In this document: in pieces, positions 2,302-58,411 of the stretch
How the letters are laid out: the number at the start of each line of letters is the position of its first letter
Numbering within the stretch: the stretch's first letter is position 1
UHGV virus genome: UHGV-0202911
DNA: 60,966 nucleotides
Origin: a virus
Reading direction: 5' to 3' (one strand)
Position numbers and translations under genes: made by a program
Notes under the pieces: model-generated
The model's input: the letters and a program-made list of their open reading frames with translations, nothing else
Told to the model about the DNA's origin: nothing
Databases searched by the model: none

Positions 2302-2532
2302 ATGGCGAAAGAAAAAGAATCCCCTGAGCAGCCTGTAGAGGAAAAGATTCCGCCTCAGCAAAGTAAGGAATCAGGTAAAGCCGAGCGCATGAGCGAAAGA
2401 ACACCCAACCAGCAAAATATGTATATTTCTGAACTGTTGCGGAAAAAGGCACAGGGTCAGAGCATGGATGCCTTGCGGGGTGAAAACCAAATGCTCAAAG
2501 CAAAGCTCAAAAGGCTTGAATCAGGACAATAA
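2302..2532 (+). CDS. small coiled-coil protein (possible head decoration or scaffold accessory)
   Basis: AGGAGG RBS; 76 aa; charged. Confidence 0.4.
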   Translation: MAKEKESPEQPVEEKIPPQQSKESGKAERMSERTPNQQNMYISELLRKKAQGQSMDALRGENQMLKAKLKRLESGQ

Positions 2533-2601
2533 GACATCAAGGTCACGAGCACAGGCCCACAGCAACAGCACTCCTTAACGCCTAGCGTCTGAGCTTGACC
2601 A

Positions 2602-2632
2602 CGGGCGGGGCACAGCCTCCCATGTCCCGCCC
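2602..2632 (+). terminator. stem-loop gggcggg...cccgccc after the capsid gene cluster
   Basis: 7-bp GC stem with a 15-nt loop; no clear U-run. Confidence 0.25.
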
Positions 2633-2662
2633 GGAATCAAGAACGGAACAAAGGACAAAGAT

Positions 2663-3031
2663 ATGTCGTATGAAACGGTTGAACTCAATGTCACGAAGCT
2701 TTCCGAGAACAAGTATCGGGACGGGAACAAGGTCTATATCGTCGCCAACTTGATTGAGCGGGCGAAAGAGCTTGAGCCGTTTGACTTGCCCCTGATTGCC
2801 CTCAACGCCAGTTCCAATGTTTGGCACCCCGTTTCTTGCGCGTATGACCTTGCCCGCAAGATGAAGCGAGTTCAGCAAGCCGATCTGAATTGTCCGATTA
2901 TCCTTGATGAATCAGGGTTCGTCATGGACGGATGGCATCGCATCGCAAAGGCTCTTTTTGAAGGCCGGGAAACCATCAAGGCGGTACGGTTTAAAGAAAC
3001 GCCCCCCTGTGACTATATAGAGGCGGAATAA
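2663..3031 (+). CDS. ParB-like nuclease domain protein
   Basis: motif ILDESGFVMDGWHRIAKAL resembles the ParB/Srx DGxHR catalytic motif. Confidence 0.4.
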   Translation: MSYETVELNVTKLSENKYRDGNKVYIVANLIERAKELEPFDLPLIALNASSNVWHPVSCAYDLARKMKRVQQADLNCPIILDESGFVMDGWHRIAKALFEGRETIKAVRFKETPPCDYIEAE

Positions 3032-3032
3032 T

Positions 3033-3599
3033 ATGTCCCTTATCGTTGAAGATGGAACCATGCCCGAAGGCGCAAATACCTACGCTTCAGTAGCAGATGC
3101 GGACGCTTATCTTTTATCCCGTGGTGTTTCTGATTGGGCCGCGCCGCCGTCTTCCGATCTGGAGCCAGATCCGCAGCTTTCAGCTAAAGAAGCCGCCCTC
3201 ATCCGTTCCGCCGATTACCTCAACGGTTTGAAGTGGAAAGGCGAAAAAATTGAGTACGATTGGCCTATGGCGTGGCCCCGCGCCGGAGTACCTACCGGAG
3301 TCAAGAACATTCACGGCGTGATGCAATTCGTCGCTTGTGACACTGTTCCCTCTGCGGTCAAGCGTGCCTGTATCGAACTTGCCGCGCTTTTCATTGCCGG
3401 GGAAGACCCGCTTGCACCCATCGAACGCGGTGGGCGTGTGGCGTCTGAAACCGTTGGGCCTATCTCTACCAGCTATTTTGACGATGCCGCTAGCGAAACC
3501 CTGTATCCTGCCGTTTCCGGCCTTGTATGGGCATTTTTGAGGGAAATTCCCGGTCAATCGGGGAGTATCTCCGGTTTTGCCGAAACGGGGAGGGCATAG
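3033..3599 (+). CDS. head-tail connector (gp6-like)
   Basis: size and position downstream of the capsid gene; N-terminal region typical of gp6/DnaT-like adaptors. Confidence 0.45.
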   Translation: MSLIVEDGTMPEGANTYASVADADAYLLSRGVSDWAAPPSSDLEPDPQLSAKEAALIRSADYLNGLKWKGEKIEYDWPMAWPRAGVPTGVKNIHGVMQFVACDTVPSAVKRACIELAALFIAGEDPLAPIERGGRVASETVGPISTSYFDDAASETLYPAVSGLVWAFLREIPGQSGSISGFAETGRA

Positions 3600-10048: not shown

Positions 10049-10051
10049 ACC

Positions 10052-12507: not shown

Positions 12508-12537
12508 AAAAGGCGGCTCACATGAACCGCCTTTTGC
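12508..12537 (-). terminator. intrinsic terminator after hicB, read on the minus strand
   Basis: ggcggttcatgtgagccgcc stem followed by a T-run on the minus strand. Confidence 0.5.
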
Positions 12538-12554
12538 TCTTTGGCTTGCTTGTG

Positions 12555-12935
12555 TTATGCGTAGGCTTGTGCGGCCTTGACGAGAAAGGCTGAACGGGTG
12601 AGTCCTCGCGCTTTTGCTTCTCGGTCAATGAGGTTTCGCATGTAGACGGGCATGGAAATGTTGACCGGAACGATATTCTGGTCAAGGAAGTCAAAGTTTA
12701 CGTCCACCAGCATAAGCATACCGCCCTTTGCACTATCCAGTTGAGCCACGGACTCAAAGGAAGAAGGAACGGGAGGGGTTATATCTTCACCTTCCGCCCA
12801 CAGTTCGACGGCTTCCTGAATATTGCCGGGAATCTCGTCCAAGGTATCTGCACCACTGAAACATCCCGGAAAATCAGGCAGAGTGACGCCATAGGCAGAT
12901 TCTGGATCTTTGTGAATAATAGCAATATATTTCAT
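12555..12935 (-). CDS. hicB: HicB-family antitoxin with a C-terminal RHH domain
   Basis: YIAIIHKDPESAYGVTLPDFPGCFSGADTLDEIPGNIQEAVELW fits the HicB fold; C-terminal LTRSAFLVKAAQAY is an RHH motif. Confidence 0.7.
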   Translation of the reverse strand: MKYIAIIHKDPESAYGVTLPDFPGCFSGADTLDEIPGNIQEAVELWAEGEDITPPVPSSFESVAQLDSAKGGMLMLVDVNFDFLDQNIVPVNISMPVYMRNLIDREAKARGLTRSAFLVKAAQAYA

Positions 12936-12970
12936 GATAACCTCGACTGAGGGGCCGAAGCCCCTCCCGG

Positions 12971-13153: not shown

Positions 13154-13459
13154 GTCGTTTTTATACGCAACATGCGCAACAAAGTCAAGAAAAAATACGC
13201 ATGTTGCGCATGGAACATTGCTTGTGACAGGGTATGAGAAAAGGCGGCCCCGAAAAGCCACCTCTCCGTGGGCTAGCGATCATAGAAAAAACGGAGAATA
13301 TCCTTAGATTTCAAGGCGTGAAGCCGGGCCAGCGGCGTTCAATCCGTATCGGCCGCGAAATTCCAATAAAATAGATTATTTCATTATATTTAAGCGTGTT
13401 ATGCTTGCACTAACGAAATAAAATGCAAAAAAGAAGGCGGTCGTGATGACCGCCTTTGC

Positions 13460-14023
13460 CTAATTGAAACTCACTTGTGCAGCGTCTAGTGTATCTTGCG
13501 TGATTCGTATGGTGCTATCACAAGCATTTCCTACGCTATAACATGGTGCTCCATCTGGAAGCATCAGAAAAACTTTTTTCCCCTTAGAGCGCACATACTC
13601 AATAGCAGGAATGAGATCTGAATCACATGAGGCAAGATACAGGACATCCCATTTATCTTCTGCCGCACCTAACACGATTTCTATAGCGATTTGCACGTCT
13701 ACAGATTTTTCAGTCTTGAAGGAAAAATCTTTTTTACAGATGGGGCATTTGTTTTTTCTGTGCACAAGCTTGCCAAGCCTGAGTATAACCCCGGACTGTT
13801 GAATCGCTGCAAAGAATTTTTGCTGCTTTATGTAATTTTCGGCATCATGAAGGCTATCCGTAGGGGATGTAAAGAACATCACATCCAACAGGGTTCGCGG
13901 CCCGGAAAGGTTACGCGCAAAAGCCCAAAAATCCAAATGCCCTTTTGATAGGTTGGCTTTTTTAAGATTCTTATAAAAATTAGGGCCATCAAATAAAAAT
14001 ACGGCGCGTTCGGGTGTTTCCAT
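13460..14023 (-). CDS. NYN-domain (PIN-like) ribonuclease with a CxxC zinc ribbon
   Basis: AVFLFDGPNFY matches the NYN motif; CPICKK motif; AGGAAA RBS; sits in an AT-rich island. Confidence 0.55.
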   Translation of the reverse strand: METPERAVFLFDGPNFYKNLKKANLSKGHLDFWAFARNLSGPRTLLDVMFFTSPTDSLHDAENYIKQQKFFAAIQQSGVILRLGKLVHRKNKCPICKKDFSFKTEKSVDVQIAIEIVLGAAEDKWDVLYLASCDSDLIPAIEYVRSKGKKVFLMLPDGAPCYSVGNACDSTIRITQDTLDAAQVSFN

Positions 14024-14200
14024 TAGATTTCCTATTTTACAAAAAAAGAGCCACGCTTTGTTGAATTTTTTCAAACTCCCCAATGCGTGGCGGTTAATTT
14101 ATGTCTTTTACCTATGCTCGTTTTTGTCTACTGTCAAGGGATAATCCTGTTGGACAGTACACCATCAATCTAGATTCCAGCATATCCATGCGGAAACTCC

Positions 14201-14458
14201 TTAAAAGCCAAGCCAGCCGAAGCCCTTAGCCATAATAGCGGCGAGGGCTACCCACCCGCCGATCTGCCACTTGAGCAGGCGGAGTTCCATTTCCTTCATT
14301 TCTTTCTGAATGCGCAATTCAGTTTCGTGCAGATCGCCTTTGGTAGCAACCGCGTTCTTCTGGTTTTCGTCATATTTTTCCAGCGGTTCTATGATAGCGC
14401 GGGCTGCTTCTTCACCTATGGCCTTTTCAAGCCTTTTTCCATCGTCAAACAGCAACAT
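14201..14458 (-). CDS. coiled-coil protein with a C-terminal TM anchor (XhlA/DUF1640-like)
   Basis: coiled-coil N-terminus and a hydrophobic C-terminus (GGWVALAAIMAKGFGWLGF). Confidence 0.3.
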   Translation of the reverse strand: MLLFDDGKRLEKAIGEEAARAIIEPLEKYDENQKNAVATKGDLHETELRIQKEMKEMELRLLKWQIGGWVALAAIMAKGFGWLGF

Positions 14459-14759
14459 GGGAAGAATCCTCCGTCTGCATGGAGTTTATCTGAAATGGGG
14501 CGGATTGCAATCTGTCCCCCTTCCACCGGAGTGCGGACTTTCCCTGTCCCACGTCGAGCAAGGCCAGCGCGTAGGACGTTAGATTGTAGTAGCGCAGGGA
14601 GTTACCCTTGGCATCGGTACGCCGGGCGGCTTTAAATTCCGGGGCTTTCGTGTCGGGAAGGATCACGCGAAGACGTTCGATGTCCCTGAGCACCTGCCCA
14701 TGCTTGCGGTTTGCGACTCGGGCTACTTCGAGAGAGGTTGTGACGTAGGTGCGTTCCAT
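14445..14759 (-). CDS. Rha-family phage regulatory protein
   Basis: N-terminal TSLEVARVANRKHGQVLRDIERL resembles Phage_pRha. Confidence 0.5.
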   Translation of the reverse strand: MERTYVTTSLEVARVANRKHGQVLRDIERLRVILPDTKAPEFKAARRTDAKGNSLRYYNLTSYALALLDVGQGKSALRWKGDRLQSAPFQINSMQTEDSSHVAV

Positions 14760-14761
14760 GC

Positions 14762-15715
14762 CTAAGCCCTCCCATTCCCGTTCAACTGCCTGACGATACC
14801 AAGCAACGAGTATCCGGGATTGCTGTACTGCTCAAGCTGTCGTCCCGGAGCGGTGAGTGCCTTCTTGACGTCATGGTACACGCTCTGGTGCAGGTACCCG
14901 CGCAATGTGTTCTCAGACAGCATATCCGGAACAAGGTACAGTCGGATGTCCGCCCGCTGTTCGAGGGCTTCCGCTACCTTCCAACTTAAGGTGAACACGC
15001 TGTGATGCAGACGCGAAAGAATGCGGTCTACCTCTTCATGCGCCGCCTGAATCTCTTCGATGAACTCCAAGAAAGGCTTTTCGTCTATCACCGGATGCGC
15101 TGCACACGGGGAAGGGAGGGCGGCTTGAGACAATGCCTCTATCTTCCCCGCATTGACCTGCATGGAGAGCAGGAAATCCCGGGCCTCATCCATGCGAGAG
15201 CAGGGGAGCTGCTTGTATTCGGCGATATGGAAGTGGCGGTTGAACCGTGTCCAAATTTCCTTGTATGCCCGACGCTGTACGGCCTTGGGCACCATCCCGG
15301 CCTTGGAGTCCACAATCAGCTTGAGTTCGGCGCGCTGTTCCGGGGAGATCGGGGCTTCATTGAGCGTTACGGGGTGGGCAACGGGCACCCTGTCGCCGTA
15401 CTGCTCTATGACGTCCAGTACCCAACGGCGGAACGCCTTAGCTACGGGCGTGCGGGCGAACATGGCAAGAAGGTGGCAGCCGCGAAGGGAGAAGATGCGG
15501 GTTTCCTGCGGGCCGCCCTCTGTTGGGAGAGTGACCACGGCGGTCATGGCAGGAGTAAATTCGTCGGCGTGGCGGGTATAGAGCTTACGGATGGAAACAT
15601 CAGCGTTTTCACCGTATCCAAGGGCCGTACCAATTTGGTACCCCCTTACCCAAGGCTGCGAATTTTGAGGGATTACGTCGAACTCGACCGAATGAAAGCA
15701 AAGGGACTGAGACAT
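14762..15715 (-). CDS. BRO-N domain protein
   Basis: N-terminal FHSVEFDVIPQNSQPWVRGYQIGTALGY is Bro-N; start taken at the internal Met with a GAGG RBS. Confidence 0.55.
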   Translation of the reverse strand: MSQSLCFHSVEFDVIPQNSQPWVRGYQIGTALGYGENADVSIRKLYTRHADEFTPAMTAVVTLPTEGGPQETRIFSLRGCHLLAMFARTPVAKAFRRWVLDVIEQYGDRVPVAHPVTLNEAPISPEQRAELKLIVDSKAGMVPKAVQRRAYKEIWTRFNRHFHIAEYKQLPCSRMDEARDFLLSMQVNAGKIEALSQAALPSPCAAHPVIDEKPFLEFIEEIQAAHEEVDRILSRLHHSVFTLSWKVAEALEQRADIRLYLVPDMLSENTLRGYLHQSVYHDVKKALTAPGRQLEQYSNPGYSLLGIVRQLNGNGRA

Positions 15716-16058
15716 AGTGAACCTCACAGTTTTTTTGATTGACCTTCCAGAAATAAAAAAGGTCGGGAGCTCAAAACCGCTGTGAGACGGCGGGCATATT
15801 CCCCTTACGGGTATTGTATTAGCCCACTCCCGACCTTTAATGGTCGTTTTATACGCCACATCCTTAGCTTTTTCTATCTTGACAGACAAAAAAAGCCATA
15901 CTTTCGGGGATTGGCATTCCGCTCACAGAGGTGTTTTGAAGCACCGTGGGGATACAACGCCACAGAAACGGGGGAATGTCAAGGTGCGTTGATTGAGTGA
16001 TGAATACAGACTTGACTTTTAGACTTGTGCCAGCGAGGAAGGTTGTGGAGGAATGATT

Positions 16059-17438
16059 ATGATCGGAAAATTACTAAAAAAGATATTTAGCAATGGCAAC
16101 GAAAAAGTCAAAGAAATTTCACGGCTAGATGGTATGTCTTCTATAAAAGAAAGTGTTGTTTGTGAAGAATGCGGACATTCTATACCGCTAAAAAAGGGTG
16201 GTACATTCGACAAGTGCCCGCAATGTGGACATATTCGGATGAAAACATTCAGAGAATTGGGCCTTAATATCGATGAGCTTCCATCTGTTGTTAAAGAACC
16301 GAAAAATACTCACGAAATGAGAGCATTGATAAAATATAAAACTCCATTAAGGGATTATATAAATATTGATTATTCTTCAGTTGATGAAAAAACACAATAT
16401 GAAATGAATTCATTTTTAGATAAATGTGCAGAGATAGAAAAAAATTTTATGAATACTTGCTCTGTACCTTGGTCTACAAGTTCTTTTGAAAAACCTTATG
16501 AAAGAATAGCTATACTTGCTAGAAAGACAAGAAATTATGCTCTTGAAGTAGAAATATGTAAGAGATATATTGAAATTATTAAAGAAGTTGAGGAAATATA
16601 CACTAAATCAAATGTATATGGTCGCCCCGGAACATGCGGGATAAGAAAAAAAATGGATGAAAGAGTTATTAGAGCACAAGAACTTCTTGAAAAACAAAAA
16701 AACAAACCTCAAAATAAACCTTCTCCACGTCCTAAAACTTCGAAAATAAATATCGATAGATCTTTTTTCACCCTGACGTTACAAGAGCAATGTTCTCTAC
16801 TTGGCATTCATTTTAGTAAAATATCTTTAAAATGGGATGATAATAGCAAAAAATACGATTTCGATAAAGTACTCCAAATTAAGAAAGTTGAAGAAGCGGT
16901 AATGCATACCTTGCGGAAAAAGGGGTTCCAAGGGACATTTTACGAGCTTCATCCATTGATGCAAATTATGCAGGCAGGATGCCTTCCCTATCTTGAGGAA
17001 AGCTCAAAAAATCTTTTTGAGGAAAACTATCGGGCACGAACATTTTCCGCTCAAATTGGTATGTATGGTTTGGACAAGGAAAAACTGGCGAACCTAATAA
17101 ATACTTGTTCTCGTGATATTTTATTAGAAAAATGGAAGGAAATTTATGCTGATAGTACTGTTCAGAAATGGTTTCCAGGGATTACGGTAGAAGATATAAA
17201 CGCGTTAATAACAGCGATACCTCAAAAAACTTTTTCTAAAATACTTGATGCCGTACTAAAAGACCCAATTAACAATTCTGTAGGATGGCCCGATATCTTT
17301 GCGTATGATGGAGAAAAATTACGGCTTATTGAAGTGAAAACCACCGACAAATTAAGAGAAAGTCAAAAATATACTTATATAAATATCATTAAAAAGATAG
17401 GGCTACCTGTAGAAGTTATTCAGGTAATAAAAAAATAG
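16059..17438 (+). CDS. zinc-ribbon protein with a MuF C-terminal-like motif and a C-terminal VRR-NUC (PD-(D/E)xK) nuclease domain
   Basis: N-terminal CEEC...CPQCGH; residues MKTFRELGLNIDELPSVVKEP match the MuF C-extein; C-terminal GWPDIFAYDGEKLRLIEVKTTDKLRESQ fits VRR-NUC; AT-rich. Confidence 0.55.
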   Translation: MIGKLLKKIFSNGNEKVKEISRLDGMSSIKESVVCEECGHSIPLKKGGTFDKCPQCGHIRMKTFRELGLNIDELPSVVKEPKNTHEMRALIKYKTPLRDYINIDYSSVDEKTQYEMNSFLDKCAEIEKNFMNTCSVPWSTSSFEKPYERIAILARKTRNYALEVEICKRYIEIIKEVEEIYTKSNVYGRPGTCGIRKKMDERVIRAQELLEKQKNKPQNKPSPRPKTSKINIDRSFFTLTLQEQCSLLGIHFSKISLKWDDNSKKYDFDKVLQIKKVEEAVMHTLRKKGFQGTFYELHPLMQIMQAGCLPYLEESSKNLFEENYRARTFSAQIGMYGLDKEKLANLINTCSRDILLEKWKEIYADSTVQKWFPGITVEDINALITAIPQKTFSKILDAVLKDPINNSVGWPDIFAYDGEKLRLIEVKTTDKLRESQKYTYINIIKKIGLPVEVIQVIKK

Positions 17439-17444
17439 GATCAA

Positions 17445-17476
17445 TAAAGGCGACTCCGTCAGAAGTCGCCTTTATT
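17445..17476. terminator. bidirectional intrinsic terminator between convergent genes
   Basis: aaaggcgactccgtcagaagtcgccttt is a perfect palindrome flanked by A- and T-runs. Confidence 0.6.
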
Positions 17477-17479
17477 GTG

Positions 17480-18016
17480 TTATTCAGTAACGCTAGCCTT
17501 TGCTTTCTTTATACCAAGTAATTGCTCTTTGAGGACTTTTACAATCTCCTGCGCCACGTCATCAAAAACAGTCTTCCATGCCCCGATGGTGTATCCCCCG
17601 CCAGCGGCGATACTGCGATTCACAGGGATTTTAGCCACAAGTACGCCTTCCGGGGTGTAGATTTCGCTTTCGGTAACGAGCTTGGTAGCTCCTGCACCGG
17701 GAAGCATCCAGCGGGCAAAAGCGTTGCCGGGGGAGTATTGCAGAATGGTTGTTTTGATAACGTAATCATTCCCTGCCAAATCCTCTGTGGCGAGTGCAGC
17801 GGTGAGAGAAGATTTCATTGCGTCAGTAAGTACGATTTTGTCGTCCTTCTCTCCAAACACAAATCCAGATTTATCCGTGACTTCGCCTGATTCAAACTTA
17901 GCAGTTTGTGCAACTTTCATGGTCGGGCTGAGTCCTTCAAGGCTTGACTTGGTGGAACACCCGACCATCCCGAAACACATCCCCGCCACAACCAGCGTCA
18001 ATAAAAGTTTTTTCAT
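17480..18016 (-). CDS. lipoprotein (candidate superinfection exclusion factor)
   Basis: GGAGGAG RBS; signal peptide MKKLLLTLVVAGMCFGMVGC containing a lipobox. Confidence 0.6.
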   Translation of the reverse strand: MKKLLLTLVVAGMCFGMVGCSTKSSLEGLSPTMKVAQTAKFESGEVTDKSGFVFGEKDDKIVLTDAMKSSLTAALATEDLAGNDYVIKTTILQYSPGNAFARWMLPGAGATKLVTESEIYTPEGVLVAKIPVNRSIAAGGGYTIGAWKTVFDDVAQEIVKVLKEQLLGIKKAKASVTE

Positions 18017-18139
18017 AACTCCTCCTGCCGATTCCGAACCATACCGGAGTTAGAAAGTCAACAGGTTGTTCATCGTGCGCTCAATAGCGGTTGACATACG
18101 CCGGAAAATGTGGAGGGTGTGGGAAAAAGGGGGAAATTT

Positions 18140-18787
18140 ATGTCTGATGCAGAGAAATGCTGTGTATGTGGTAATAAATTCACTGGATTATTTAAAGCTG
18201 ACAGACCTAGTGATTCTGCCGTACAAGCTCTCAAACAATTAGGAAAAAATGTTGATGATTATTGTCTGCAATGCTTTGTAAAGAAACGTGCAGAAGTAGA
18301 AAACGATATAGAGGCTAATATTGAAGAATTAAAGACAAAATTAAAATCTGTTACAGAAGAAGAATTAGAAAAAATACAAGTTTTCACAACGCCTCCCCCA
18401 GAAGATTGGAAATTTGAAATTAAGGGAATGGTTTCAGGGTATTCTGTTATTGGGACAGGCCCATTTACAGAAATAGCTTCTGCCTTTACTGATTTGTTTG
18501 GACAAGAATCTGTAGCCTATTTTGAAAAAATCCGTACAGGTGAGGCTAGGGCGATTAATGTTGCCAAAATGGAATCCTTAAAAAAAGGAGGAAATGCTTT
18601 ATCAGGAGTAACTTTGACGGTAACAGAGGCCACTCGTGGTAATGGAATGTTAATCATATCATGTGTGGGAACTGCCATAAAACATATTAATGATACTGAG
18701 GAAAAATCTTTATTTCCTCAATTAGTTCTTAAATTGGATGAATTACAAAAAAAATTAGTTTCTTTAAAAATGGCATCGTCAGTTTAA
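18140..18787 (+). CDS. zinc-ribbon protein with a C-terminal YbjQ/UPF0145 (DUF74) domain
   Basis: CCVCGNKF...CLQC motif; GMVSGYSVIGTGPFTEIASAFTDLFG...VTLTVTEATRGNGMLIISCVGTAIK fits the YbjQ fold. Confidence 0.55.
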   Translation: MSDAEKCCVCGNKFTGLFKADRPSDSAVQALKQLGKNVDDYCLQCFVKKRAEVENDIEANIEELKTKLKSVTEEELEKIQVFTTPPPEDWKFEIKGMVSGYSVIGTGPFTEIASAFTDLFGQESVAYFEKIRTGEARAINVAKMESLKKGGNALSGVTLTVTEATRGNGMLIISCVGTAIKHINDTEEKSLFPQLVLKLDELQKKLVSLKMASSV

Positions 18788-18805
18788 AAATTATTTAACA
18801 AAGCC

Positions 18806-18846
18806 CCCTCTGTATTGTAACGTGCGGAGGGGGCTTTGTTTTTTAT
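18806..18846 (+). terminator. intrinsic terminator
   Basis: aaagccccctc...gagggggcttt stem followed by TTTTTT. Confidence 0.55.
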
Positions 18847-18920
18847 TTTATACCAACATTGCCTCGCTTTTTCCCCTCCAGTGATGTTTGCTCATAGGCA
18901 TTCATCCGGGGGTAGAAAAG

Positions 18921-21900
18921 ATGGCAGGCTTTACTCTTCGTTTCAATATTTCGGAAGTCCAAAAGAAATCGAAAGAGGCTCAAAATTCGATTCATGGAGT
19001 AACCGAATCCCTCAAAGAGACAAACAAATTTCTCAAGATAGTACCACGTGAAGCCACTAACGCCGAACGTGCTCTATCTACTTCCATGCAGCAAGCACAA
19101 AATGCTGTCTCTGGGTTGAATGGTTCTCTTGTTTCTCTCAAAAAAACAGCATTGACGGCTCTTTCCGCGATTGGCCTTGAAGAATTTTTGCGCCAGTCAA
19201 TCAAAGGATATGCCGACTATGAAACCGCACTCGTAAACATTGGGAAGGTTTCAGATCAATCTCTCGCTTCGGTAGACAAAAATTTGCGTTCTATCGACTC
19301 CTCTTTAGGGTCATATACTGAGCTTGCGACTGGATACTATCAAGTCCTTTCTGCGGGCGTCACCGATACCGCGAAGTCTCTTGATGTTCTTGAGACGTCT
19401 TCTAAAGCTGCAAAGGCATCGGGGGTTAGTCAGGCCGACACGATTAAAGCTCTGACTTCGCTCATGACAGGGTATACGGGGCAATTGAAGGGTGCTACGG
19501 ACGCGGCAGATACTCTTTTTGCGATTGAACGATATGGGAAAACTTCCGTTCAGGAACTTGTACCGTATATCGGGGAGCTTTCCAGTGTTTCCCGTATTGC
19601 CGGGGTTAACCTCAATAGCCTTGGAGCTTCCCTTTCCATCATTACTCAGACGGCAGGAAGCACCGCTACAGCTTCTACCCAAGTTAAGGCCCTTTTTCTT
19701 GAAACCACCAAGGAAAGCGAAAACCTCAAGAGAGTGTTATCCGATCTTGGAAAAGAAAATTTTCAGGAGCTTTTGCAGTCCAGCGGTGGAGATATTCTCA
19801 AAGCCTTGCAAACCATTTCTAAGCAAGCAGAAAAAACGGGAACTTCTATATCTTCGTTGTTTGGTTCTCAAGAGGCGCAGATAGCCGCAAAGAATCTTAT
19901 CGATCTGGCTTCAGAATACCAAAAGGCTCTAACTGGATTGGAAAATCGATCCGGGACGCTAGCTTCTGCCTTTGGGAGATATACCAAAACCATCAATGGC
20001 CTTACCTCTACAACGCAAAGTTTACTTTCCAACCTTGCCACGGAAATTGGTGAATCTTTCGGAGGCGTCGCTGCTAAAGCTTTAGATCTGTTCAATAACG
20101 GGCTCACGTTCACTACGGAAAACCTTCATTCCCTCCAAGCTGCGACCGCTTCTGTTGTTGCTGGCCTTATTGCGTTGAGGGCTGTACGTCAGGCTGACAC
20201 TCAATCTATTAGGGAAAGGTCTATAGCCTTAACCCAAGAAATCGCTACTGCAAAACAATCTGCCATTCAAAACAAGCAACTAGAATTACAGGCCGCACAA
20301 CAGGCTCTGTCTAGCTATGTTTCCAGCAAAAAAGGTTTTGGCCCTAATTTTTCTTATGCCGCTCCACAGCTACGGCAACAGATGCTTGCTACCGTGGAAG
20401 GATACAAAGAGCAGATAGCTGGAGCAAATGCCGCTATCGCTCAACTCCAAGCTAAATCTGGAGTTTTGGTTTCTAGCACATTGGCAGCCTCTAAAGCCCT
20501 CTCTGGACTTCGCTCTGTTGGCGCGGGGGTACTCAGTTTTTTTGGTGGTCCTTGGGGCGCGGCTTTTACAATTGCGGCTAGTGCGGTTGCCTATCTCGCT
20601 ACACGCCAAAGCGAATCAGAGGCCATTGCCGAAAGGTATAAAGATGTAAACACGCGGGTATCTCAGGCCCTTAAAGAACAGGCAAAGCAGGCTGGAGACG
20701 CCGAAACAAATATAAAAAACCTTTCGGCAACACAAGCTAAATTGGCACAAGAGCAAGCTAAAAGAGATCAGCAAAATTCCCTTACTGCGTTAGCTTTTAT
20801 GGCTAATGCCAATCCGTGGGAATCGTATCTTAATACGAACGGAGAAATAGGCGCGGTTGATAAAATTCGCGGAGTCGTAAGCAATTTTCTTCAAGACGTT
20901 AAAAATGGAAAAGCAGATATCGGCGCAACGGCAAAGGAGATCAGTTTTCTTGGTTCAACATCCGAAGATGCCGCTAAATTTGCACAAGAAGTATTAAATA
21001 CGTTAAAAAACTATGATGCAGCATCAATAACCATACAAAATGCAACTAATAATATAAAAAATCTTACAAATAGCCTCAATCAAGCCTCAAATGCTTCTCA
21101 GGTAACAAAAGCTTCTTTGTTAAGTCTTTCTGGTATTGATGAAGCACTTAAACAAAGTGAATTTATAGCCTTTACGAATCGTCTACCAACTGAGATGCGT
21201 TCAGCTGCGTCTTTTATTAAAAGCTCTGTAAAGAATTTAAATACTGAACAAATTCAGAATGCGTTAAAGGGAAATTTTGAAGGCATTAATCCTGATGATG
21301 CTAAAAAACTACAAAAAATTATTAGCAACCTGAAAACCCCCAAGCTCAAGACATCCACTAAGGGCACTTCTGAAATCGATAATGCCAAGGAAAAGGTGCA
21401 GCAGCTTCGGGAAGAAATAGACCGTCTGAATGGTACTGACGTAAAGGCCAATACTGATCTTTCCAAGACTATCCGAGAAATCGAATCCGTAGGGGCTAAG
21501 GCGAAACTTTCCGGCGATGAAATCAAAAAGCTCAAGACGGATTACGAAACCGCGTTCAAGACCAGCACGTTGAAGGAATTCAACAAAGAACTTCTTCAAG
21601 CTCAGGGGAACACCAAGGAACTCCGCACTATCGAGATTGTGGAAGCCGTCAATGAATGGACTACGCGGCTGAAAGGGCTTGGCCTCACTGAAACAGAGGT
21701 GACGGCGAAAACGAACCAACTCCGCGAAGCTATGAATCTGCAATCCCAGATCAAGGACGCGCAAGCCGCCGCCGACTTCTACCGTGAGCTTGCGCAATTG
21801 TCGGGAAACTATGGGCGTTCTCAGGAATATGTGGACCAGCTTCTTTCGCTACAGGCAGACAACCTGATTCGGAACGTGGGCATCACCCGTGAGCTTGCGG

Positions 21901-44899: not shown

Positions 44900-45062
44900 G
44901 GGGATGCTCCTTTGAGTGAGTTTAATTATTAATCATGTGATACATATTATACGGCTTGCTGATCTATTAGATAAGATGTTATACTCTTTATATCTTGATG
45001 ATAATAATGGATGAATGCACAACCAATAAAAAAGCCCGCATGTAGCGGGCAGGAGTGTAGTA

Positions 45063-45343
45063 TGGAAAGGAATAATGAAGATCGTATTGTTTCTTTGTTG
45101 GAAGATATTAAGAATATTTTACTCTCTCAGAGAGATTTGTACTTATACTATAACACGCAAGAATATCATCATTCCATTTTCGGAAAAGAACAAGATAAAT
45201 CATATGTATTGCATACAATGTACCCGGAACCTTTCGGTATATTGACACAACGCGGTAAAATTCCTGCCCCTTTATTTATGCAACCTTTTTTTGAAAACGC
45301 ACTAGAAAATATAACTAAATTTTACAATAAGGATAAAGAATAA
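45063..45343 (+). CDS. hypothetical protein (AT-rich)
   Basis: AGGAG RBS. Confidence 0.35.
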
Positions 45344-45728
45344 TATTGTACGTATTAAATCCACAAAACCATGATCGTTTTATTTTTATCTCTATTTCAT
45401 ATTTACATTTACCATCTGATAATAAACAATTAAATTTATATTTTTGATTTTTATATAAAACTTTTTGAATATTTTTTACATTTCCAATTTTTATGTGCTC
45501 TTTAAATTGTCCAGTGTTTGGGTCCATTTCTTCTGAATTTTCGATAATATCGAATCCCTTAATAGATATGGCTTTACATATAGTTATAGGTTTTGAAGAA
45601 GTATTATATAGAGTTTCCTTATCTTCAAGAATCAAACCTATATTCTGATTTGCTTTGAATGTAAGGTATACTGTAGCACAAGCTGTTACTATTCCAGCAA
45701 CATCAGCAATCGTTATACTATAAGACAT
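45315..45728 (-). CDS. hypothetical protein with an N-terminal TM helix
   Basis: AT-rich; hydrophobic N-terminus. Confidence 0.35.
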   Translation of the reverse strand: MSYSITIADVAGIVTACATVYLTFKANQNIGLILEDKETLYNTSSKPITICKAISIKGFDIIENSEEMDPNTGQFKEHIKIGNVKNIQKVLYKNQKYKFNCLLSDGKCKYEIEIKIKRSWFCGFNTYNIILYPYCKI

Positions 45729-45732
45729 AATA

Positions 45733-46155
45733 TTATTCCCCGCCCTGTGCGGGGTTTTCTTTACTCATTTGGCGAATTTTTATTAGAAGATCAATTTTCT
45801 CATTAGTAAGATTTTCGATCTGCTTTTGCGCAAGTCTATTTTCCCCCTCAAGCCTTAAATTTTCTTGAGACAACTTTTCCATAGATATTTCAAGTTCGTG
45901 AATCCTTTTATTCTTTGCATCAATATCTTTAGAAAAATCTCCCTCTACTTCCCAAGGGAAAATTACCTTGACCCCTACCGCGTCGAATACAGCACCTACG
46001 TTTTTCAGCGTAGGGTTGTTTCGCTCTCCGGTATACCATCGAGAAAGATTAGGTGCAGCTATTCCCGTAATTGCTGAAAGCTCCGCCTGCTTGCCGCGAT
46101 CCTGTAGGATCATCTTCAAATTTCGCATAATACGTTCGTACATGTTTTCATTCAT
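45733..46155 (-). CDS. CI-like repressor (XRE HTH plus C-terminal coiled coil)
   Basis: QAELSAITGIAAPNLSRWYTGERNNP fits an HTH; divergent from the cro-like gene. Confidence 0.6.
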   Translation of the reverse strand: MNENMYERIMRNLKMILQDRGKQAELSAITGIAAPNLSRWYTGERNNPTLKNVGAVFDAVGVKVIFPWEVEGDFSKDIDAKNKRIHELEISMEKLSQENLRLEGENRLAQKQIENLTNEKIDLLIKIRQMSKENPAQGGE

Positions 46156-55576: not shown

Positions 55577-56943
55577 TCTGGAAGCCGAACAGCAAGGCCC
55601 AAACCCTTTTCCTTTCGTGTCCCTATTCAGAAATCCTGTTTGGTGGTTCTCGTGGACCGGGGAAAACGGATTCGTTGCTGATGGATTACATCCAGTTCGT
55701 AGGTTTGGGATTTGGACCCTCATGGAAAGGGATTATTTTCCGGCAAACCTATAAGCAACTTGAAGAAATCGTTAGCAAATCAAAAAGGTTTTATCCCGCT
55801 ATTGTCCCCGGTGCCCAGTGGAGGGGGTCGGCTATGGAATGGGTATTCCCGAAAGGGGAAACCTTGAAGCTGCGCCATGCCAAGCGCCCGGCTGACATGG
55901 AGAACTACCAAGGGCATGAATATCCTTTTGTCGGGTTTGACGAGCTTTGCAACCTGCCATCACAGGAAGTTTACGAGAAGGCCAAAGGGTTCTGCCGTTC
56001 TAGCGATCCCAATGTTCCTAAGATGATTCGTTGCACAGCCAACCCTCTTGGGCCGGGCCATCTTTGGGTTAAGCGATATTTCATTGACCCCGCACCAGCT
56101 TTGACCCCGATTGTCGAGTCACATGGGGGTAAGCGTGTATTCATTCCCGCTACCATTTACGACAACAAGAATCTTGTGGAGGCAGACCCCGATTATCTGC
56201 GACGTCTTGAGTCCATCGCTGATGATAGCTTGCGCCGGGCATGGCTCAATGGGGATTGGAATGTCGTAGCGGGCTCTTTCTTCGGAGATGTGTGGTCAGC
56301 CTCACGCAATATTGTAAAGCCTTTCAATATTCCTAGGAATTGGTATTGCTTCCGCTCGTTTGACTGGGGGAGTTCGCATCCCTTCTCAGTAGGGTGGTGG
56401 GCCATTGCTGACGGGACACAGGCCCCGGATGGCGTTTTCTACCCCCGTGGGGCATTCATCCGTTTTGCTGAGTGGTATGGTGCCAAACGTGGCTCCAATG
56501 GCATGGTAGTCCCCAATGAGGGGCTCAGGATGTCCAGCAAGCACGTAGCGCAGGGCATCCGTGAACGTGAACGGAAGATGTCCGAGGCTATGGGGATTCG
56601 TATCAATCCCGGCCCTGCCGATCCTGCTATCTACGCTAGTACTGACGGCCCAAGCGTAGCCGACAATATGGCTTCTGAGGGGATTAAGTGGGTTCGGGCC
56701 GACAATTCCCGCGTCACAGGATGGCAGCAAATGCGGGAGCGGATATGGCAGGAGGGGGAAGAACCCATGCTGTATGTATTCAATACCTGTACCGAACTGA
56801 TCCGAACTCTTCCCGCTGCGCCGAGGGATGAACATATCCCGGATGACATTGATACGGAATTTGAAGACCACGCGCTTGATGAATGCAGGTACGCGGTAAT
56901 GTTTAAGAAGCGTGAAGTCTTTTTTGGCAGTTCAATGGGCTAG
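55552..56943 (+). CDS. terL: terminase large subunit
   Basis: Walker A GGSRGPGKTDS; nuclease C-terminal domain. Confidence 0.8.
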   Translation: MGNSSPKVIWKPNSKAQTLFLSCPYSEILFGGSRGPGKTDSLLMDYIQFVGLGFGPSWKGIIFRQTYKQLEEIVSKSKRFYPAIVPGAQWRGSAMEWVFPKGETLKLRHAKRPADMENYQGHEYPFVGFDELCNLPSQEVYEKAKGFCRSSDPNVPKMIRCTANPLGPGHLWVKRYFIDPAPALTPIVESHGGKRVFIPATIYDNKNLVEADPDYLRRLESIADDSLRRAWLNGDWNVVAGSFFGDVWSASRNIVKPFNIPRNWYCFRSFDWGSSHPFSVGWWAIADGTQAPDGVFYPRGAFIRFAEWYGAKRGSNGMVVPNEGLRMSSKHVAQGIRERERKMSEAMGIRINPGPADPAIYASTDGPSVADNMASEGIKWVRADNSRVTGWQQMRERIWQEGEEPMLYVFNTCTELIRTLPAAPRDEHIPDDIDTEFEDHALDECRYAVMFKKREVFFGSSMG

Positions 56944-56953
56944 GAGAAAATAT

Positions 56954-58411
56954 ATGGCTGACAACACTGAGTATAGCAAAAAACACCCGGATTATTCCGA
57001 GTCATACCAACGCCGGGGGCTGGCCCTTGACCTGTATGAAGGCGGCAGGCGTGTGGAGGAAAACCCCGCGTATCTTATCCGGCACCCGTACGAGACGCAA
57101 AAGCAGTATGATATCCGGTTCCAGCGGGCCACCTACCGCAATTTTGCGGCCCCTATTGTTGACGTGTTCGCCAGCTTCATCAACGAGGGGAGGCCCCAGC
57201 GCGTATTGCCCGCCAAGCTTGAGGATATGCAGGAAAACGTTGACCGTCTCGGCACCAAGGCCAATACCTTCTTTGCCGATGTGACGCGCCTTGCCGCTGC
57301 CGGGGGCATCAGATTTGTGCAGGTTGATGCGGAGCCTCAGGCGGGCGTTACCCAAGCTGAGGCGGAAGAGGCCGGGCGCAGGCAGTGGCCTTATTTCATC
57401 TCCCTTGATCCCACGGACGTATGGGATTGGGAAATCGGCGCGGACGGTTTGGATTGGGTTGTTATCCACGGCGCAGGTATGGAGGGGAATGCCCCATTCA
57501 CCAAGGGTACGCGCTACGAAACCTTGACCGTGTGGACGCGGACGGAATGGACGCGCTACAGGCGGGAAACGGATTCCACGGCAAAGGCAGCGACCAGCCT
57601 CGGGTGGAAAGAATACGACAAAGGGATAAACCCTTCCGGGGTGGTCCCCGTAGTGCCGTTTACGTTTGAAGATACGGCGGGTTCCATCATGTCCGGCGTC
57701 CCGGCAACGGATGACGTTCTTTCGCTTGTTCTTCGCATTTACAGGCGCGATTCCGAACTGGATAAGATGCTGTTCGACCGGGCCGTCCCTCTGCTCAACG
57801 TCAATGGCCTAAGCAAAGAGGACTGGGCAGATTTTGTCGTGGGAAGCTCTAACGCCCTCATGAGCACGGACCCAGGCGGCATCACCGCGCAGTATGTGGA
57901 ATCCACGGGAACCTCCTTTTCGGCGCAGACTGAATTTTTGACCCGTGACGAGAACTCGGTGCGTGAAATCGCGCTCCGCATGATCCGCCCGCAGTCCGGG
58001 GTAGGGGAGTCCGCCGAATCCAAACAGATTGACCGTCAACAGCTTGATACACAGCTTGCGAACTTTGCCCGCAGGTGTGCCAATGCTGAGGCGCAGTGCT
58101 GGAAAATCGCGGCCCGATGGATGCGACTGGACGATCGCGACATTTCCACGCCCTATACTGAGAATTACGATGTAGAGGCCGCAGGGGATGCAATTGTGTC
58201 TGCGCTGGTATCCCTGAACTCGCAAGCTATCATCTCCAAGCAAACCATCAGGGACACATCCGCAGTCAAGAAGATGATGCCCGAGGGATGGAAACCAGAA
58301 GAGGAAGAGACGCGGTTGCAGCAAGAGCTTGGAAGCACGAGGGGAGCTTCTGGAACTTTGCGTTTGCCGAATATTCTTGGAGGGACGGGAACGCAAGGCA
58401 TGAATATTTAA
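56954..58411 (+). CDS. portal protein
   Basis: 486 aa between terL and MuF. Confidence 0.65.
   Translation: MADNTEYSKKHPDYSESYQRRGLALDLYEGGRRVEENPAYLIRHPYETQKQYDIRFQRATYRNFAAPIVDVFASFINEGRPQRVLPAKLEDMQENVDRLGTKANTFFADVTRLAAAGGIRFVQVDAEPQAGVTQAEAEEAGRRQWPYFISLDPTDVWDWEIGADGLDWVVIHGAGMEGNAPFTKGTRYETLTVWTRTEWTRYRRETDSTAKAATSLGWKEYDKGINPSGVVPVVPFTFEDTAGSIMSGVPATDDVLSLVLRIYRRDSELDKMLFDRAVPLLNVNGLSKEDWADFVVGSSNALMSTDPGGITAQYVESTGTSFSAQTEFLTRDENSVREIALRMIRPQSGVGESAESKQIDRQQLDTQLANFARRCANAEAQCWKIAARWMRLDDRDISTPYTENYDVEAAGDAIVSALVSLNSQAIISKQTIRDTSAVKKMMPEGWKPEEEETRLQQELGSTRGASGTLRLPNILGGTGTQGMNI

Follow-up and report, generated by a model that had tools for sequence, protein, structure and literature searches.

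Why should a phage nuclease gene carry what looks like a piece of the MuF protein? The question is raised by ORF461, a gene in the virus genome UHGV-0202911, which was analysed as one stretch of 60,966 nucleotides (hereafter the window). An earlier note on this DNA had described a VRR-NUC nuclease sharing a conserved motif with MuF, and had proposed that it is a virion-packaged effector. The phage is a temperate siphophage, and its host is probably Bilophila or Desulfovibrio.

Gene and genomic context

The features that set out the locus are the following.

16053..17438, plus strand: ORF461, FAN1-like nuclease gene and single-gene AT-rich island, 461 aa (from the open reading frame list and the sequence)
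17442..17477: strong hairpin with a 14-16 bp stem, candidate bidirectional terminator between the convergent ORF461 and DUF4410 lipoprotein genes
17480..18016, minus strand: DUF4410 lipoprotein gene, convergent with ORF461
18797-18840: second terminator-like hairpin, separating the island from the tape-measure gene
58809..60887, plus strand: resident MuF gene, following the portal gene (56912..58411)

The probable start codon is at 16059, giving 459 aa, because the sequence GGAGGA lies 7 nt before the second ATG and because the identical 459-aa database protein, P0001, starts with MIGK. The GC content of the gene is 32.9%, compared to 50.5% for the window, and the dip is co-extensive with the gene. 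ORF461 is an individually acquired AT-rich cassette in an accessory island that splits the tail genes, in agreement with the horizontal acquisition proposed in the earlier note. It is located between the tail-tube region and the tape-measure gene and not adjacent to the portal gene; on the circular map, some 16 kb separate it from the portal-MuF pair. A complete MuF is retained by the phage. A scan of the 163-nt upstream spacer gave no sigma-70-like promoter above shuffled expectation, although host promoters may differ.

Domain architecture and identity of the nuclease

An AlphaFold model made with 8 sequences was poor at the N-terminus (pLDDT ~55), and a model made with 108 sequences was used instead. 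The protein divides as follows, all on the plus strand.

16062..16088: amphipathic N-terminal leader GKLLKKIFS, residues 4-12, predicted helix of low pLDDT
16149..16241: four-Cys zinc ribbon, residues 33-63 (C37, C40, C55, C58), four short strands, pLDDT 86-91
16242..16283: MuF-type post-knuckle motif KTFRELGLNIDELP, residues 64-77 (from BLASTP against the window MuF, the MuF1 consensus, and HMM and shuffle controls)
16386..16703: four-helix TPR-like repeat domain, residues 112-217, confident in the predicted model
16704..16751: disordered Lys/Pro-rich linker, residues 218-233, pLDDT <50 at 223-232
16752..17435: nuclease module, residues 234-461, a QC-helix/beta unit and a VRR-NUC PD-(D/E)xK core with a helical insertion

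Residues after the leader are disordered up to residue 32. A leader of the type M-G-x-F/L-K-K-I-F is found in the zinc-module-bearing family members and in the mini-MuFs P0009 and P0022, and is missing from stand-alone nuclease modules. The four zinc-ribbon cysteines are invariant across the family, and residues 33-61 match Pfam zinc-ribbon models weakly. Despite the four-helix repeat, Pfam gave no TPR match; nor did it detect a SAP or UBZ domain, and the MuF-type zinc ribbon stands at the corresponding position. At the locus L017, the gene is naturally split at the Lys/Pro-rich linker into two overlapping reading frames.

The VRR-NUC nuclease that had been read at the C-terminus is present and intact. 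Pfam VRR_NUC (PF08774) matches residues 381-458 with 30.0 bits, against a gathering cut-off of 23.8, and the PD-(D/E)xK signature can be followed through G411-W-P-D414, E427-V-K429 and Q438. The predicted catalytic residues are E280, D414, E427, K429 and Q438, and near-invariance among 108 homologues extends to Q246, C247, E280, E298, GWPD 411-414, E427, K429, D432 and Q438. The module is modelled with pLDDT of 95-99. In a Foldseek search of the PDB, the best 23 matches were all FAN1 (E 4e-9 to 3e-6), and FAN1 was the sole full-length structural match; the predicted VRR-NUC core with helical insertion has a fold like that of the solved FAN1 structures. When the family profile was compared to PDB sequences, FAN1 again came top, with an E-value of 0.027 and over the nuclease core only (profile positions 367-454). 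The nuclease-only label is thereby refined: going by the model, the whole enzyme is FAN1-like, combining a helical-repeat domain with a VRR-NUC domain that has a helical insertion. FAN1 enzymes are 5' flap endonucleases and 5'-3' exonucleases, and FAN1-like cutting of 5' flaps would be expected of ORF461.

The zinc ribbon and motif shared with MuF

In the resident MuF, the corresponding segment is interrupted by an intein of 320 aa (59586..60545), which leaves these two pieces on the plus strand.

59508..59585: end of the N-extein, with the first knuckle CRIC and the H-P-N of the second, residues 234-259 (from translation and intein mapping)
60546..60629: start of the C-extein, with the +1 Cys that completes HPNC, then RGVYVPILKTFREIGLNIDELEEVARP; motif core at 60573-60611

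The intein position places the motif 9 residues into the C-extein, where the earlier note had located it. An intein-less allele also exists (P0008) and reads HPNCRGVYVPILKIFRELGLNIDELEEVARPW. Pfam Phage_Mu_F covers MuF residues 156-260.

BLASTP aligned MuF residues 588-606 with ORF461 residues 63-81 at 13/19 identical positions (E 5e-5), and the core KTFRELGLNIDEL of ORF461 (nt 16242-16280) agrees with KTFREIGLNIDEL of MuF (nt 60573-60611) at 12 of 13, so the 20-aa motif described in the earlier note is upheld. At the DNA level, the two cores are identical at 28/39 nt and 4/13 codons, with 8 synonymous differences and a longest exact run of 10 nt. That eight of the 12 shared residues use different codons indicates that the identity of the motif is held by selection; a DNA repeat is ruled out as its source, and the peptide-level homology claimed in the earlier note stands. 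Each motif comes after a CxxC...(C/H)xxC arrangement, and in both families it follows at once, and without a shift of register, on the second zinc knuckle, which is CxxC in ORF461 and not HxxC as in MuF. The motif is net acidic as read from the sequence, so a direct contact with DNA is unlikely.

Profile comparison shows that the similarity reaches beyond the 20-mer. Using hhalign, the ORF461 family and independent MuFs were aligned over 52 columns with 95.3% probability (E 2.1e-8), taking in both knuckles, as well as the motif. An early comparison with few sequences aligned a 23-column motif alone, and the result became convincing only once the larger family from an exhaustive search was used; with the window clade removed from both sides, few sequences were left and they gave a weak match, at an E-value of 0.024. 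An HMM built from 14 MuFs of unrelated phages was also run against the six-frame translation of the window, where it scored MuF at 34.3, ORF461 at 18.4 and the next segment at 10.1 bits. ORF461 (E 7e-5 among 1175 segments) was the sole non-MuF match in the window. A pan-MuF1 segment, KSWRELG(F/I)DIDE(L)P after HxxCR(C/S), recurs in unrelated phages, and by this comparison the motif is not private to the UHGV-0202911 phage but common to MuF1 proteins generally.

In short, sequence comparison indicates that the zinc ribbon and KTFRELGLNIDELP of ORF461 are homologous to the last and most conserved part of MuF (the SPP1 gp7 family). This portion amounts to only about 50 residues, with the rest of the MuF domain missing. 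The MuF models Pfam PF04233 and TIGR01641 match the window MuF and P0022, but not ORF461, and we therefore reject ORF461 as a MuF family member proper. A sequence search of the PDB found no MuF structure.

A MuF-nuclease fusion and the spread of the family

A metagenomic protein, P0022, joins a MuF C-half and an ORF461-type nuclease module in a single polypeptide. Its residues 24-182 are 42% identical to the spliced MuF of the window (E 3e-40) and its residues 230-446 are 40% identical to ORF461 (E 3e-46), and it matches TIGR01641. Judged from these alignments, P0022 supports an evolutionary link between ORF461 and MuF-nuclease effectors, which the earlier note had suggested. P0022, a singleton, comes from a contig of 1.5 kb on which GC drops across the fusion junction; a protein database search using it as query found no second MuF-nuclease fusion, and a search of the JGI metagenomes gave no match. 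The nuclease-less mini-MuF P0009 has the same kind of leader as ORF461.

The nuclease module is mostly stand-alone, with hundreds of copies of 220-350 aa, and in one case (P0116) it is fused to an RNase_T/DnaQ-type exonuclease. The N-terminal module is tied to this one nuclease and not to varied cargo. Full-length ORF461-type proteins are rare, at about 20 representatives among 1.8 billion. A tblastn search of 50,697 deposited phage genomes gave no match to ORF461, nor did PHROGs; PADLOC gave none for ORF461 itself, NCBIfam gave a weak zinc-ribbon match only, and among the BFVD viral structures there were small VRR-NUC domains but no full-length match. One distant VRR-NUC locus was found in IMG/VR. 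The scan of GTDB genomes returned only one distant match and, in a Bilophila MAG, a 65-codon remnant, and the reduction of the gene to a remnant indicates that it is dispensable.

Loci of the family always lie in accessory islands, with HicAB, antirepressors, DUF2442/DUF4160, an AAA ATPase or an NYN protein, the last of which matches the PADLOC candidate HEC-09. In every locus examined, the adjoining gene encodes a lipoprotein, a secreted protein or a membrane protein, and these neighbours belong to unrelated families. We sought a conserved downstream partner or immunity gene among the loci and found none, as the neighbours are not homologous to each other. In the window, as in L001-L004, L016 and L022, the gene is located among virion genes and shares its strand with the tail genes that follow, but in the prophage L014 it lies on the strand opposite the tail genes.

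Packaged in the virion or acting in the cell

We hold it highly probable that ORF461 is, by sequence and fold, an intact FAN1-type structure-specific PD-(D/E)xK nuclease, and that its homology to the MuF module is real. What the enzyme does with that module is a more tentative matter. The MuF-derived module hints that the nuclease rides in the virion or docks on the partner of MuF. The portal directs gp7 to the procapsid, and the same route of delivery has been proposed for MuF-fused toxins, of which more than half are nucleases (PMC5576092, PMC6316719, PMC5512222); incorporation of 80alpha gp44 depends on the portal crown (PMC12889711). The ORF461 family would then descend from, or have swapped modules with, MuF-nuclease fusions, of which P0022 would be the fused form. 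The retained module would let the nuclease bind whichever phage-specific partner the resident MuF binds, with the portal or the procapsid interior as the most plausible candidates. A few copies of the nuclease would enter the head and leave it together with the DNA, and the phage would then benefit from the cutting of branched or 5'-flap structures, or of DNA ends, in the cell just infected.

Several observations favour this account of a packaged and ejected nuclease. The motif of ORF461 matches that of the resident MuF lineage at 12/13 positions and those of other MuFs at only 5-9/13, which, with the codon differences, hints at a shared partner. We also count the P0022 fusion, the mini-MuF P0009 with its leader of the same kind, and the position among virion genes on the tail-gene strand. 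Against it we count the small extent of the MuF portion and the failure of both MuF models to match it; the appearance of a moron, with 33% GC and two hairpins; the neighbouring antirepressors, HicB, NYN/HEC-09 and lipoproteins, the opposite strand in L014 and the lack of an immunity gene; the tie of the N-terminal module to one nuclease, which is the reverse of polymorphic-toxin logic; and the singleton status of P0022 on its short contig, along with the weak profile match when the window clade is removed. The account as a whole therefore stays somewhat short of probable in our estimation, and the docking and packaging step taken by itself is put as tentatively or a shade more so. A broader form, in which the MuF zinc-ribbon/KSWRELG segment would suffice by itself for docking on the portal or procapsid interior and could be transferred between proteins, appears fairly unlikely. 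On that broader form, siphophages could load separately encoded cargo, such as a FAN1-like nuclease, into heads in trans, and competition with the resident MuF for one site would make the motif co-evolve with it. We found no mapping of portal binding to the zinc-knuckle/KSWRELG segment in the gp7/gp44 literature, and no observation that bears out the signal for capsid incorporation, protease processing or portal interaction that the earlier note had suggested.

The same surroundings suit a moron nuclease that acts in the cell. It would have expression signals of its own, be made in the lysogen or soon after infection, and serve superinfection exclusion or defence; its targets might be, for example, DNA ends entering the cell or the intermediates formed when related phages replicate. 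Its zinc ribbon would be a sensor or decoy for a head-assembly protein, or a structural or nucleic-acid-binding domain at the place of the FAN1 SAP/NTD. The single-gene cassette with its 3' hairpin, the constant residence in accessory islands, the unrelated lipoprotein, secreted or membrane neighbours (typical of exclusion hot spots), the reversed strand in L014, the dispensability of the gene and the mostly stand-alone module, once fused to a DnaQ-type exonuclease, all speak for such a role. However, it leaves unexplained why the motif tracks the resident MuF, as well as the architectures of P0022 and P0009, and a sensor of the phage's own head machinery would fire on induction. PADLOC does not recognise ORF461 itself and no sigma-70-like promoter was detected upstream, though host promoters may differ. 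On balance, we consider a cell-acting moron nuclease somewhat unlikely.

An improbable third account is that ORF461 is a housekeeping FAN1-like flap/branch nuclease of the phage, trimming replication or recombination intermediates, or branched concatemers, ahead of headful packaging or in the course of it, with the MuF-type module bringing the enzyme to the portal-terminase vertex and the enzyme itself not packaged. Most VRR-NUC subfamilies, FAN1/KIAA1018 included, occur in DNA-metabolism contexts (PMC9635880); a predicted FAN1 fold with intact active site, the exonuclease fusion in P0116 and a MuF-like module suited to the packaging vertex are consistent with this. The gene nevertheless sits outside the replication module, has foreign composition and is readily lost, and both its rarity and the lack of a match in deposited phage genomes are at odds with a housekeeping role.

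That the motif was copied recently from the resident MuF gene into ORF461 in this phage lineage, by gene conversion over a short patch or by recombination, and has no function of its own there, is very improbable and largely refuted. ORF461 of the window is indeed 3-4 positions nearer to its own MuF than to any other MuF. However, the KTFRELGLNIDELP motif and the zinc ribbon are conserved in P0004, P0006, P0015, P0018, P0025, P0034 and P0119, distant family members of 29-39% identity from other phages, and P0015 equals the window protein in its score against unrelated MuFs; the nucleotide divergence and short exact run given above also disagree with conversion, and the GC of the patch equals that of the remaining gene. 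Chance resemblance, or a common low-complexity linker as the earlier note had allowed for, has a negligible probability and is rejected: the exact match is short (13-19 residues) and its 32 bits are insignificant at the scale of a whole database of 5.8 billion sequences, but the best of 20,000 shuffled N-termini scored 16.9 and the second 10.6, compared to 20.4-21.7 for real ones, and the six-frame control, the common register after the second knuckle, the 52-column alignment and the P0022 fusion all contradict it.

Significance

MuF-fused toxins are widespread in temperate gut phages, and their entry into the virion, and the way it occurs, are stated as not demonstrated (PMC10083569). The ORF461 family isolates a MuF module of about 50 residues on an otherwise unrelated, well-folded enzyme, and offers a comparison set in the fused P0022, the nuclease-less P0009 and the two-gene split at L017. 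This makes it possible to ask directly whether the module alone binds the portal and puts cargo into heads. If the docking-module reading is true, the segment would be the capsid-targeting determinant of MuF-type effectors and a portable head-packaging tag; if the enzyme is instead a cell-acting moron nuclease, prophage defence islands would gain a new single-gene nuclease whose recognition domain is a fragment of a head protein. The FAN1 architecture, found in eukaryotic and bacterial crosslink repair, is extended into phage accessory islands, and one may ask which DNA structure it would profit a phage to cut, either as it enters the cell or in the lysogen.

Comparison with known systems

The enzyme is nearest to FAN1/KIAA1018, represented by human FAN1 and Pseudomonas aeruginosa PaFAN1 (PDB 4R89/5Y7G), though sequence similarity is marginal at the E-value of 0.027. 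ORF461 is about 100 residues shorter than PaFAN1, has no detected SAP domain or NTD, begins with a MuF-type zinc ribbon and not a UBZ, and is encoded in a phage accessory island, whereas FAN1 belongs to a chromosomal repair context. The T6SS VRR-Nuc effectors TseV1-4 (Hespanhol et al. 2022, PMC9635880) are structure-specific VRR-NUC nucleases that have a delivery domain at the N-terminus and are delivered as weapons. They belong to a Plu1493-like clade, with a PAAR N-terminus and DUF3396 immunity genes; ORF461 has none of these and is closer to the FAN1 clade, so we reject the identification with TseV-type effectors.

The source of the shared module is the family of SPP1 gp7 and 80alpha gp44, which are low-copy, head-internal, recruited by the portal, co-ejected with DNA, and DNA-binding (PMC6316719, PMC7290940, PMC12889711). 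ORF461 lacks their helical N-terminal two-thirds, and gp44 binds DNA through a basic C-terminal tail, not through a zinc ribbon. The JBD30 "minor capsid protein" was dropped as a relevant comparison, as it is a decoration protein.

In MuF polymorphic toxins, the MuF domain is followed at the C-terminus by a toxin domain, in many cases a nuclease (Jamet et al. 2017, PMC5576092; Zhang et al. 2012, PMC3482391). ORF461 resembles them in having a MuF-derived element N-terminal to a nuclease in a temperate phage, and the KSWRELG motif is also present in P0162 and P0165, which are canonical MuF toxins. It differs in that only the last ~50 MuF residues are present, on a separate gene with no downstream immunity gene, and so falls outside the definition of Jamet et al. 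(2017), namely a complete MuF domain, a C-terminal toxin and a small downstream immunity gene. Unlike in those toxins, it is the N-terminus that varies in the ORF461 family, and the toxin is not the variable part. We found no report of VRR-NUC or FAN1-like cargo together with MuF, and one paper that mentions both terms.

Finally, proteins packaged into heads in trans, namely the T4 internal proteins and Alt (via a capsid-targeting sequence), P1 Dar and the polyvalent proteins (PMC5512222), have no sequence kinship to ORF461 but share the concept, with the MuF zinc ribbon as the putative targeting element: an enzyme is encoded apart from the structural proteins, a short element targets it to the capsid, and injection follows.

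A predicted FAN1-type nuclease in an AT-rich gene

ORF461 is a 461-aa open reading frame (16053..17438, +) in the ORF list of the window. Its second ATG lies at 16059, with a GGAGGA box 7 nt upstream, and the identical database protein P0001 begins there, so the real product is probably 459 aa long. GC content is 32.9%, against 50.5% for the window, and the dip matches the extent of the gene (33-34% over 16001-17500, 50% over the following 500 bases). The Pfam model VRR_NUC matches residues 381-458 at 30.0 bits (curated cut-off 23.8 bits), and residues 33-61 give weak matches to zinc-ribbon models. An earlier note, made from the sequence alone, had described a gene in an AT-rich island with a VRR-NUC domain and a MuF-like motif, and all of these are confirmed.

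An AlphaFold model made from 108 homologues has a mean pLDDT of 87 and comprises the following parts:

Residues 4-12: short amphipathic leader helix (low confidence)
Up to residue 32: disorder
Residues 33-63: four-stranded, four-Cys zinc ribbon (pLDDT 86-91)
Residues 64-70: first half of the motif, packed (pLDDT about 85)
Residues 71-90: looser stretch
Residues 112-217: four long TPR-like helices
Residues 218-233: disordered Lys/Pro linker
Residues 234-461: very confident C-terminal module (pLDDT 95-99)

Among the 108 homologues Q246, C247, E280, E298, G411-W-P-D414, E427, K429, D432 and Q438 are near-invariant, which indicates an intact PD-(D/E)xK site, and the protein is predicted to be a FAN1-like nuclease, presumably a structure-specific one. 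ORF461 showed no sign of a SAP, NTD or UBZ domain, and the MuF-type zinc ribbon sits at the end where these would be.

The N-terminal module is homologous to a segment of MuF

The resident MuF gene (58809..60887) holds a 320-aa intein at 59586..60545 (CVIGETS...IVTSN, with C following), so the partner motif falls in the C-extein, where the earlier note had placed it. The MuF allele P0008 has no intein and matches the spliced extein at 96% identity. In BLASTP of the two window proteins, ORF461 residues 63-81 align with MuF 588-606 (13/19 identical, E 5e-5), and the cores, KTFRELGLNIDEL and KTFREIGLNIDEL, share 12/13 residues. At the DNA level the core is identical at 28/39 nt, with a longest exact run of 10 nt, 4/13 identical codons and 8 synonymous differences. 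A DNA repeat is therefore rejected, and the similarity is one of peptides, as had been proposed.

The motif segment is, by sequence, a conserved part of MuF. In MuFs of unrelated phages the second zinc knuckle is followed by the consensus HxxCR(C/S)xxxxP(V/I)xKSWRELG(F/I)DIDE(L/I/M)PxGTRAS, carried for example by Pasteurella Pm86, by Pseudomonas YMC11/02/R656 and by a dozen MuFs from metagenomes, among them canonical MuF toxins bearing an ADP-ribosyltransferase or deamidase domain. An HMM of 14 MuFs from unrelated phages, none of the window lineage, was run against 1175 six-frame window segments; it scored MuF at 34.3 bits, ORF461 at 18.4 bits (E 7e-5) and the third-best segment at 10.1 bits. 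The family N-termini of P0001, P0002 and P0015 scored 20.4-21.7 bits and five other members 4-8 bits, while the top scores of 20,000 shuffles were 16.9 and then 10.6. An earlier profile test, which left out the window clade and had no more than four and three sequences, gave a weak match (E 0.024), though in the same register. With the N-modules of eight ORF461-family sequences, extra members coming from the exhaustive search described below, and ten independent MuFs, profile-profile comparison gave 95.3% probability and E 2.1e-8 over 52 columns that take in both zinc knuckles and the motif. The claimed homology thus holds well beyond the 20-mer, and chance or a low-complexity linker is rejected by the six-frame, shuffle and profile results. 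Recent gene conversion from MuF is also ruled out, since distant relatives in other phages carry the module (P0004, TTWREIGVEASELP; P0015, CPNCNCKYLPTWRELGINKDEV; P0119, P0034, P0025, P0018 and P0006) and the GC of the motif patch equals that of the remaining gene.

The C-terminal domain of the window MuF closes with a weaker repeat of the motif, YTLEQLGFDEQG (60846..60887), and that of the ORF461 relative P0022 with YTLQELGFDIDES (residues 172-185; 35% against the ORF461 motif in BLASTP, E 0.10). These may be repeats of a short docking-type motif.

Antisense to the intein runs a 310-aa ORF (59568..60500, -), over which the 320-codon sense frame remains open; its product combines HTH repeats with a Vsr/MTES_1575-like endonuclease domain. 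In P0163, another MuF with an intein, the insertion site differs and falls within the first zinc knuckle; the antisense ORF there (contig L026, 10751..11563, -) is homologous to that of the window (24% identity, E 5e-15), and both start MEVIHM. For actinobacteriophages, a recent preprint describes VSR-like homing endonucleases encoded antisense within full inteins (bioRxiv 10.1101/2025.01.02.630785), and these ORFs would extend them to MuF genes of Desulfovibrionaceae phages.

Fused, split and stand-alone forms

A word-indexed search of 5.8 billion proteins gave 7 ORF461 relatives, and an exhaustive profile search of 1.84 billion representatives gave 766 matches (E <= 1e-3). The majority, at 220-350 aa, cover profile positions ~230-455 only, so the nuclease module is a widespread stand-alone unit; alternative N-termini also occur, such as an RNase_T/DnaQ exonuclease (P0116). 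About a dozen representatives have every part, from the leader through zinc ribbon, motif and TPR-like domain to the nuclease. As the longest of the 766 matches has 542 aa, no full-length MuF-nuclease fusion was seen among them.

P0022 (449 aa) is a candidate fusion of shorter extent. Its residues 24-182 are 42% identical to 206-365 of the spliced window MuF (E 3e-40), spanning TLDN-CxxC, HxxCRC, KSWRELGIDIDDLEEVARPW and the entire MuF C-terminal domain, and residues 230-446 are 40% identical to ORF461 243-460 (E 3e-46), with a Pro/Lys linker between the two parts. The N-terminal half matches both TIGR01641 and PF04233-bearing MuF proteins. P0022 is a singleton, and on its contig of 1562 nt the GC drops from ~0.47 to ~0.32 at the junction; no shared sequence accounting for chimeric assembly was seen. 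The protein supports an evolutionary link between ORF461 and MuF. P0009 (231 aa, another sample) is a similarly truncated MuF C-half without nuclease. Like leaders begin P0022 (MFKKIINFF), P0009 (MGLLKKIISFF) and the ORF461 family (MIGKLLKKIFS), and are missing from the stand-alone nuclease modules. At locus L017 the halves are separate, overlapping genes: P0025 (207 aa) comprises zinc ribbon, motif and TPR-like domain, and the adjoining 224-aa nuclease is 35% identical to ORF461 243-460 (E 3e-50).

Genomic context

The window is a temperate siphophage, circularly permuted as presented:

55552: terminase
56912: portal
58809: MuF
392: scaffold
1262: major head protein
3033-5412: connectors
5416: tail protein
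~7100-18850: accessory island, 11.7 kb
18888: tape measure
Thereafter: lambda-like M/L/K/J tail-tip genes
31629 (-): integrase

The island contains ANT/Bro-N and Rha antirepressors, HicB, an NYN protein, ORF461 and a YbjQ-domain protein. A Bro-N/ORF6C gene is divergent from ORF461 and a DUF4410 lipoprotein gene convergent. A hairpin of 14-16 bp (17442-17477) lies 3' of ORF461, and a very strong, terminator-like one (18797-18840) stands ahead of the tape-measure gene; the sequence upstream of ORF461 showed no sigma-70-like promoter.

The NYN-domain protein (207 aa, 13460..14083, -) is a hit to HEC-09, a candidate defence family in PADLOC (E 4e-26); HicB (12555..12935, -) and two antirepressor genes lie close by. 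The YbjQ_1-domain protein (225 aa, 18110..18787, +), with a Cys-rich N-terminus, lies directly 5' of the tape measure, in the usual tail-chaperone position and before the second hairpin. Further sharp AT-rich patches, at 18001..19000 (37-38% GC over this gene) and at 45001..46000 (31.6%), suggest several independently acquired cassettes.

In loci L001-L004 (nuclease 86% identical) the order is Bro-N (-), nuclease (+), membrane protein (+) and tape measure (+). The accessory region of L001 also encodes a 350-aa Cas_Csy3 (type I-F Cas7) homologue (2396..3448, -), with no other cas genes listed nearby. L022 (nuclease P0021) has HicAB, a P22_AR_N/ORF6C antirepressor (-), the nuclease (+), DUF2442/DUF4160 genes and more + genes, which lack Pfam matches and are possibly tail genes. 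L016 has an AAA_16 ATPase, the nuclease, a secreted protein and then a 1058-aa protein. In the prophage L014 (702-kb contig) the nuclease gene is flanked by gpK-like and GpJ genes and runs antiparallel to the tail genes; Bro-N and a gene for a YecR lipoprotein are its neighbours here too. In every locus examined the nuclease gene has beside it a gene for a lipoprotein, a secreted protein or a membrane protein, from families unrelated to one another, which could be a moron hot-spot effect or functional pairing:

Window: 17480..18016 (-, DUF4410)
L001: 11467..12039
L014: 11752..12141
L015: 3382..3783
L016: 4248..4763
L017: 354..962
L018: 797..1474

In an uncultured Bilophila MAG (L019, 3354..3722, +) the last ~65 nuclease codons alone remain (87% identical) and abut high-GC sequence, with endolysin-like and terminase genes alongside. 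This deletion remnant points to Bilophila as host genus, so the host is probably in Desulfovibrionaceae, and the nuclease gene is dispensable.

A possible route into the head

The interpretation in the earlier note is supported in part: the homology and the evolutionary link hold, and packaging is a proposal. We tentatively favour a reading in which the module still makes a contact specific to MuF, the simplest partner being the portal or procapsid interior, and would thereby carry a few molecules of the nuclease into the head, from which they would be co-ejected. The MuF origin of the zinc-ribbon/motif domain, its fused, nuclease-less and two-gene forms, and the position of the gene among virion genes, mostly in the same orientation, speak for this. 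The ORF461 motif shares 12/13 residues, including derived T, F and L-N states, with the resident MuF lineage and 5-9/13 with other MuFs, while the codons differ at 8/12 of the shared residues; such a pattern suggests selection by a phage-specific partner common to both proteins. A DNA contact is unlikely, as the motif is net acidic. Delivery models have been published for MuF toxins and polyvalent proteins (PMC5576092, PMC5512222, PMC6316719), and incorporation of 80alpha gp44 depends on the portal crown (PMC12889711). Against packaging, ORF461 holds just ~50 MuF residues, to which portal binding is not mapped in the literature found; nuclease constancy with variable N-termini is the reverse of polymorphic toxins; and there is no immunity gene.

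The moron-like composition, the terminators and the opposite-strand gene of L014 also weigh against packaging. The main alternative, which we consider somewhat less likely, is a moron nuclease acting in the cell, where it would serve exclusion or defence and its MuF fragment would be a sensor, a decoy or a structural domain. A third and unlikely option is that of a housekeeping flap nuclease working at the packaging vertex.

Comparison with known systems

A combination of MuF with VRR-NUC or FAN1-like cargo was not found in the literature, one paper naming both terms being left aside, and tblastn against 50,697 deposited phage genome records gave no ORF461 gene. A TseV-type effector is rejected. 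ORF461 is not a canonical MuF toxin, having neither a complete MuF domain nor an immunity gene, and is not a member of the MuF family, as it fails both HMMs, is not beside the portal gene and lacks the N-terminal domain; it does contain a homologue of the terminal zinc-ribbon segment of MuF. It resembles FAN1 in predicted fold and active site, but lacks the SAP/NTD domain and has marginal sequence similarity, and is not classed as FAN1. ORF461 is thus a predicted, intact FAN1-type nuclease bearing a domain otherwise known only from the head-internal MuF. It places the FAN1 architecture in phage accessory islands, and offers, in a compact module, a testable candidate for the part that targets MuF-type effectors to the capsid.
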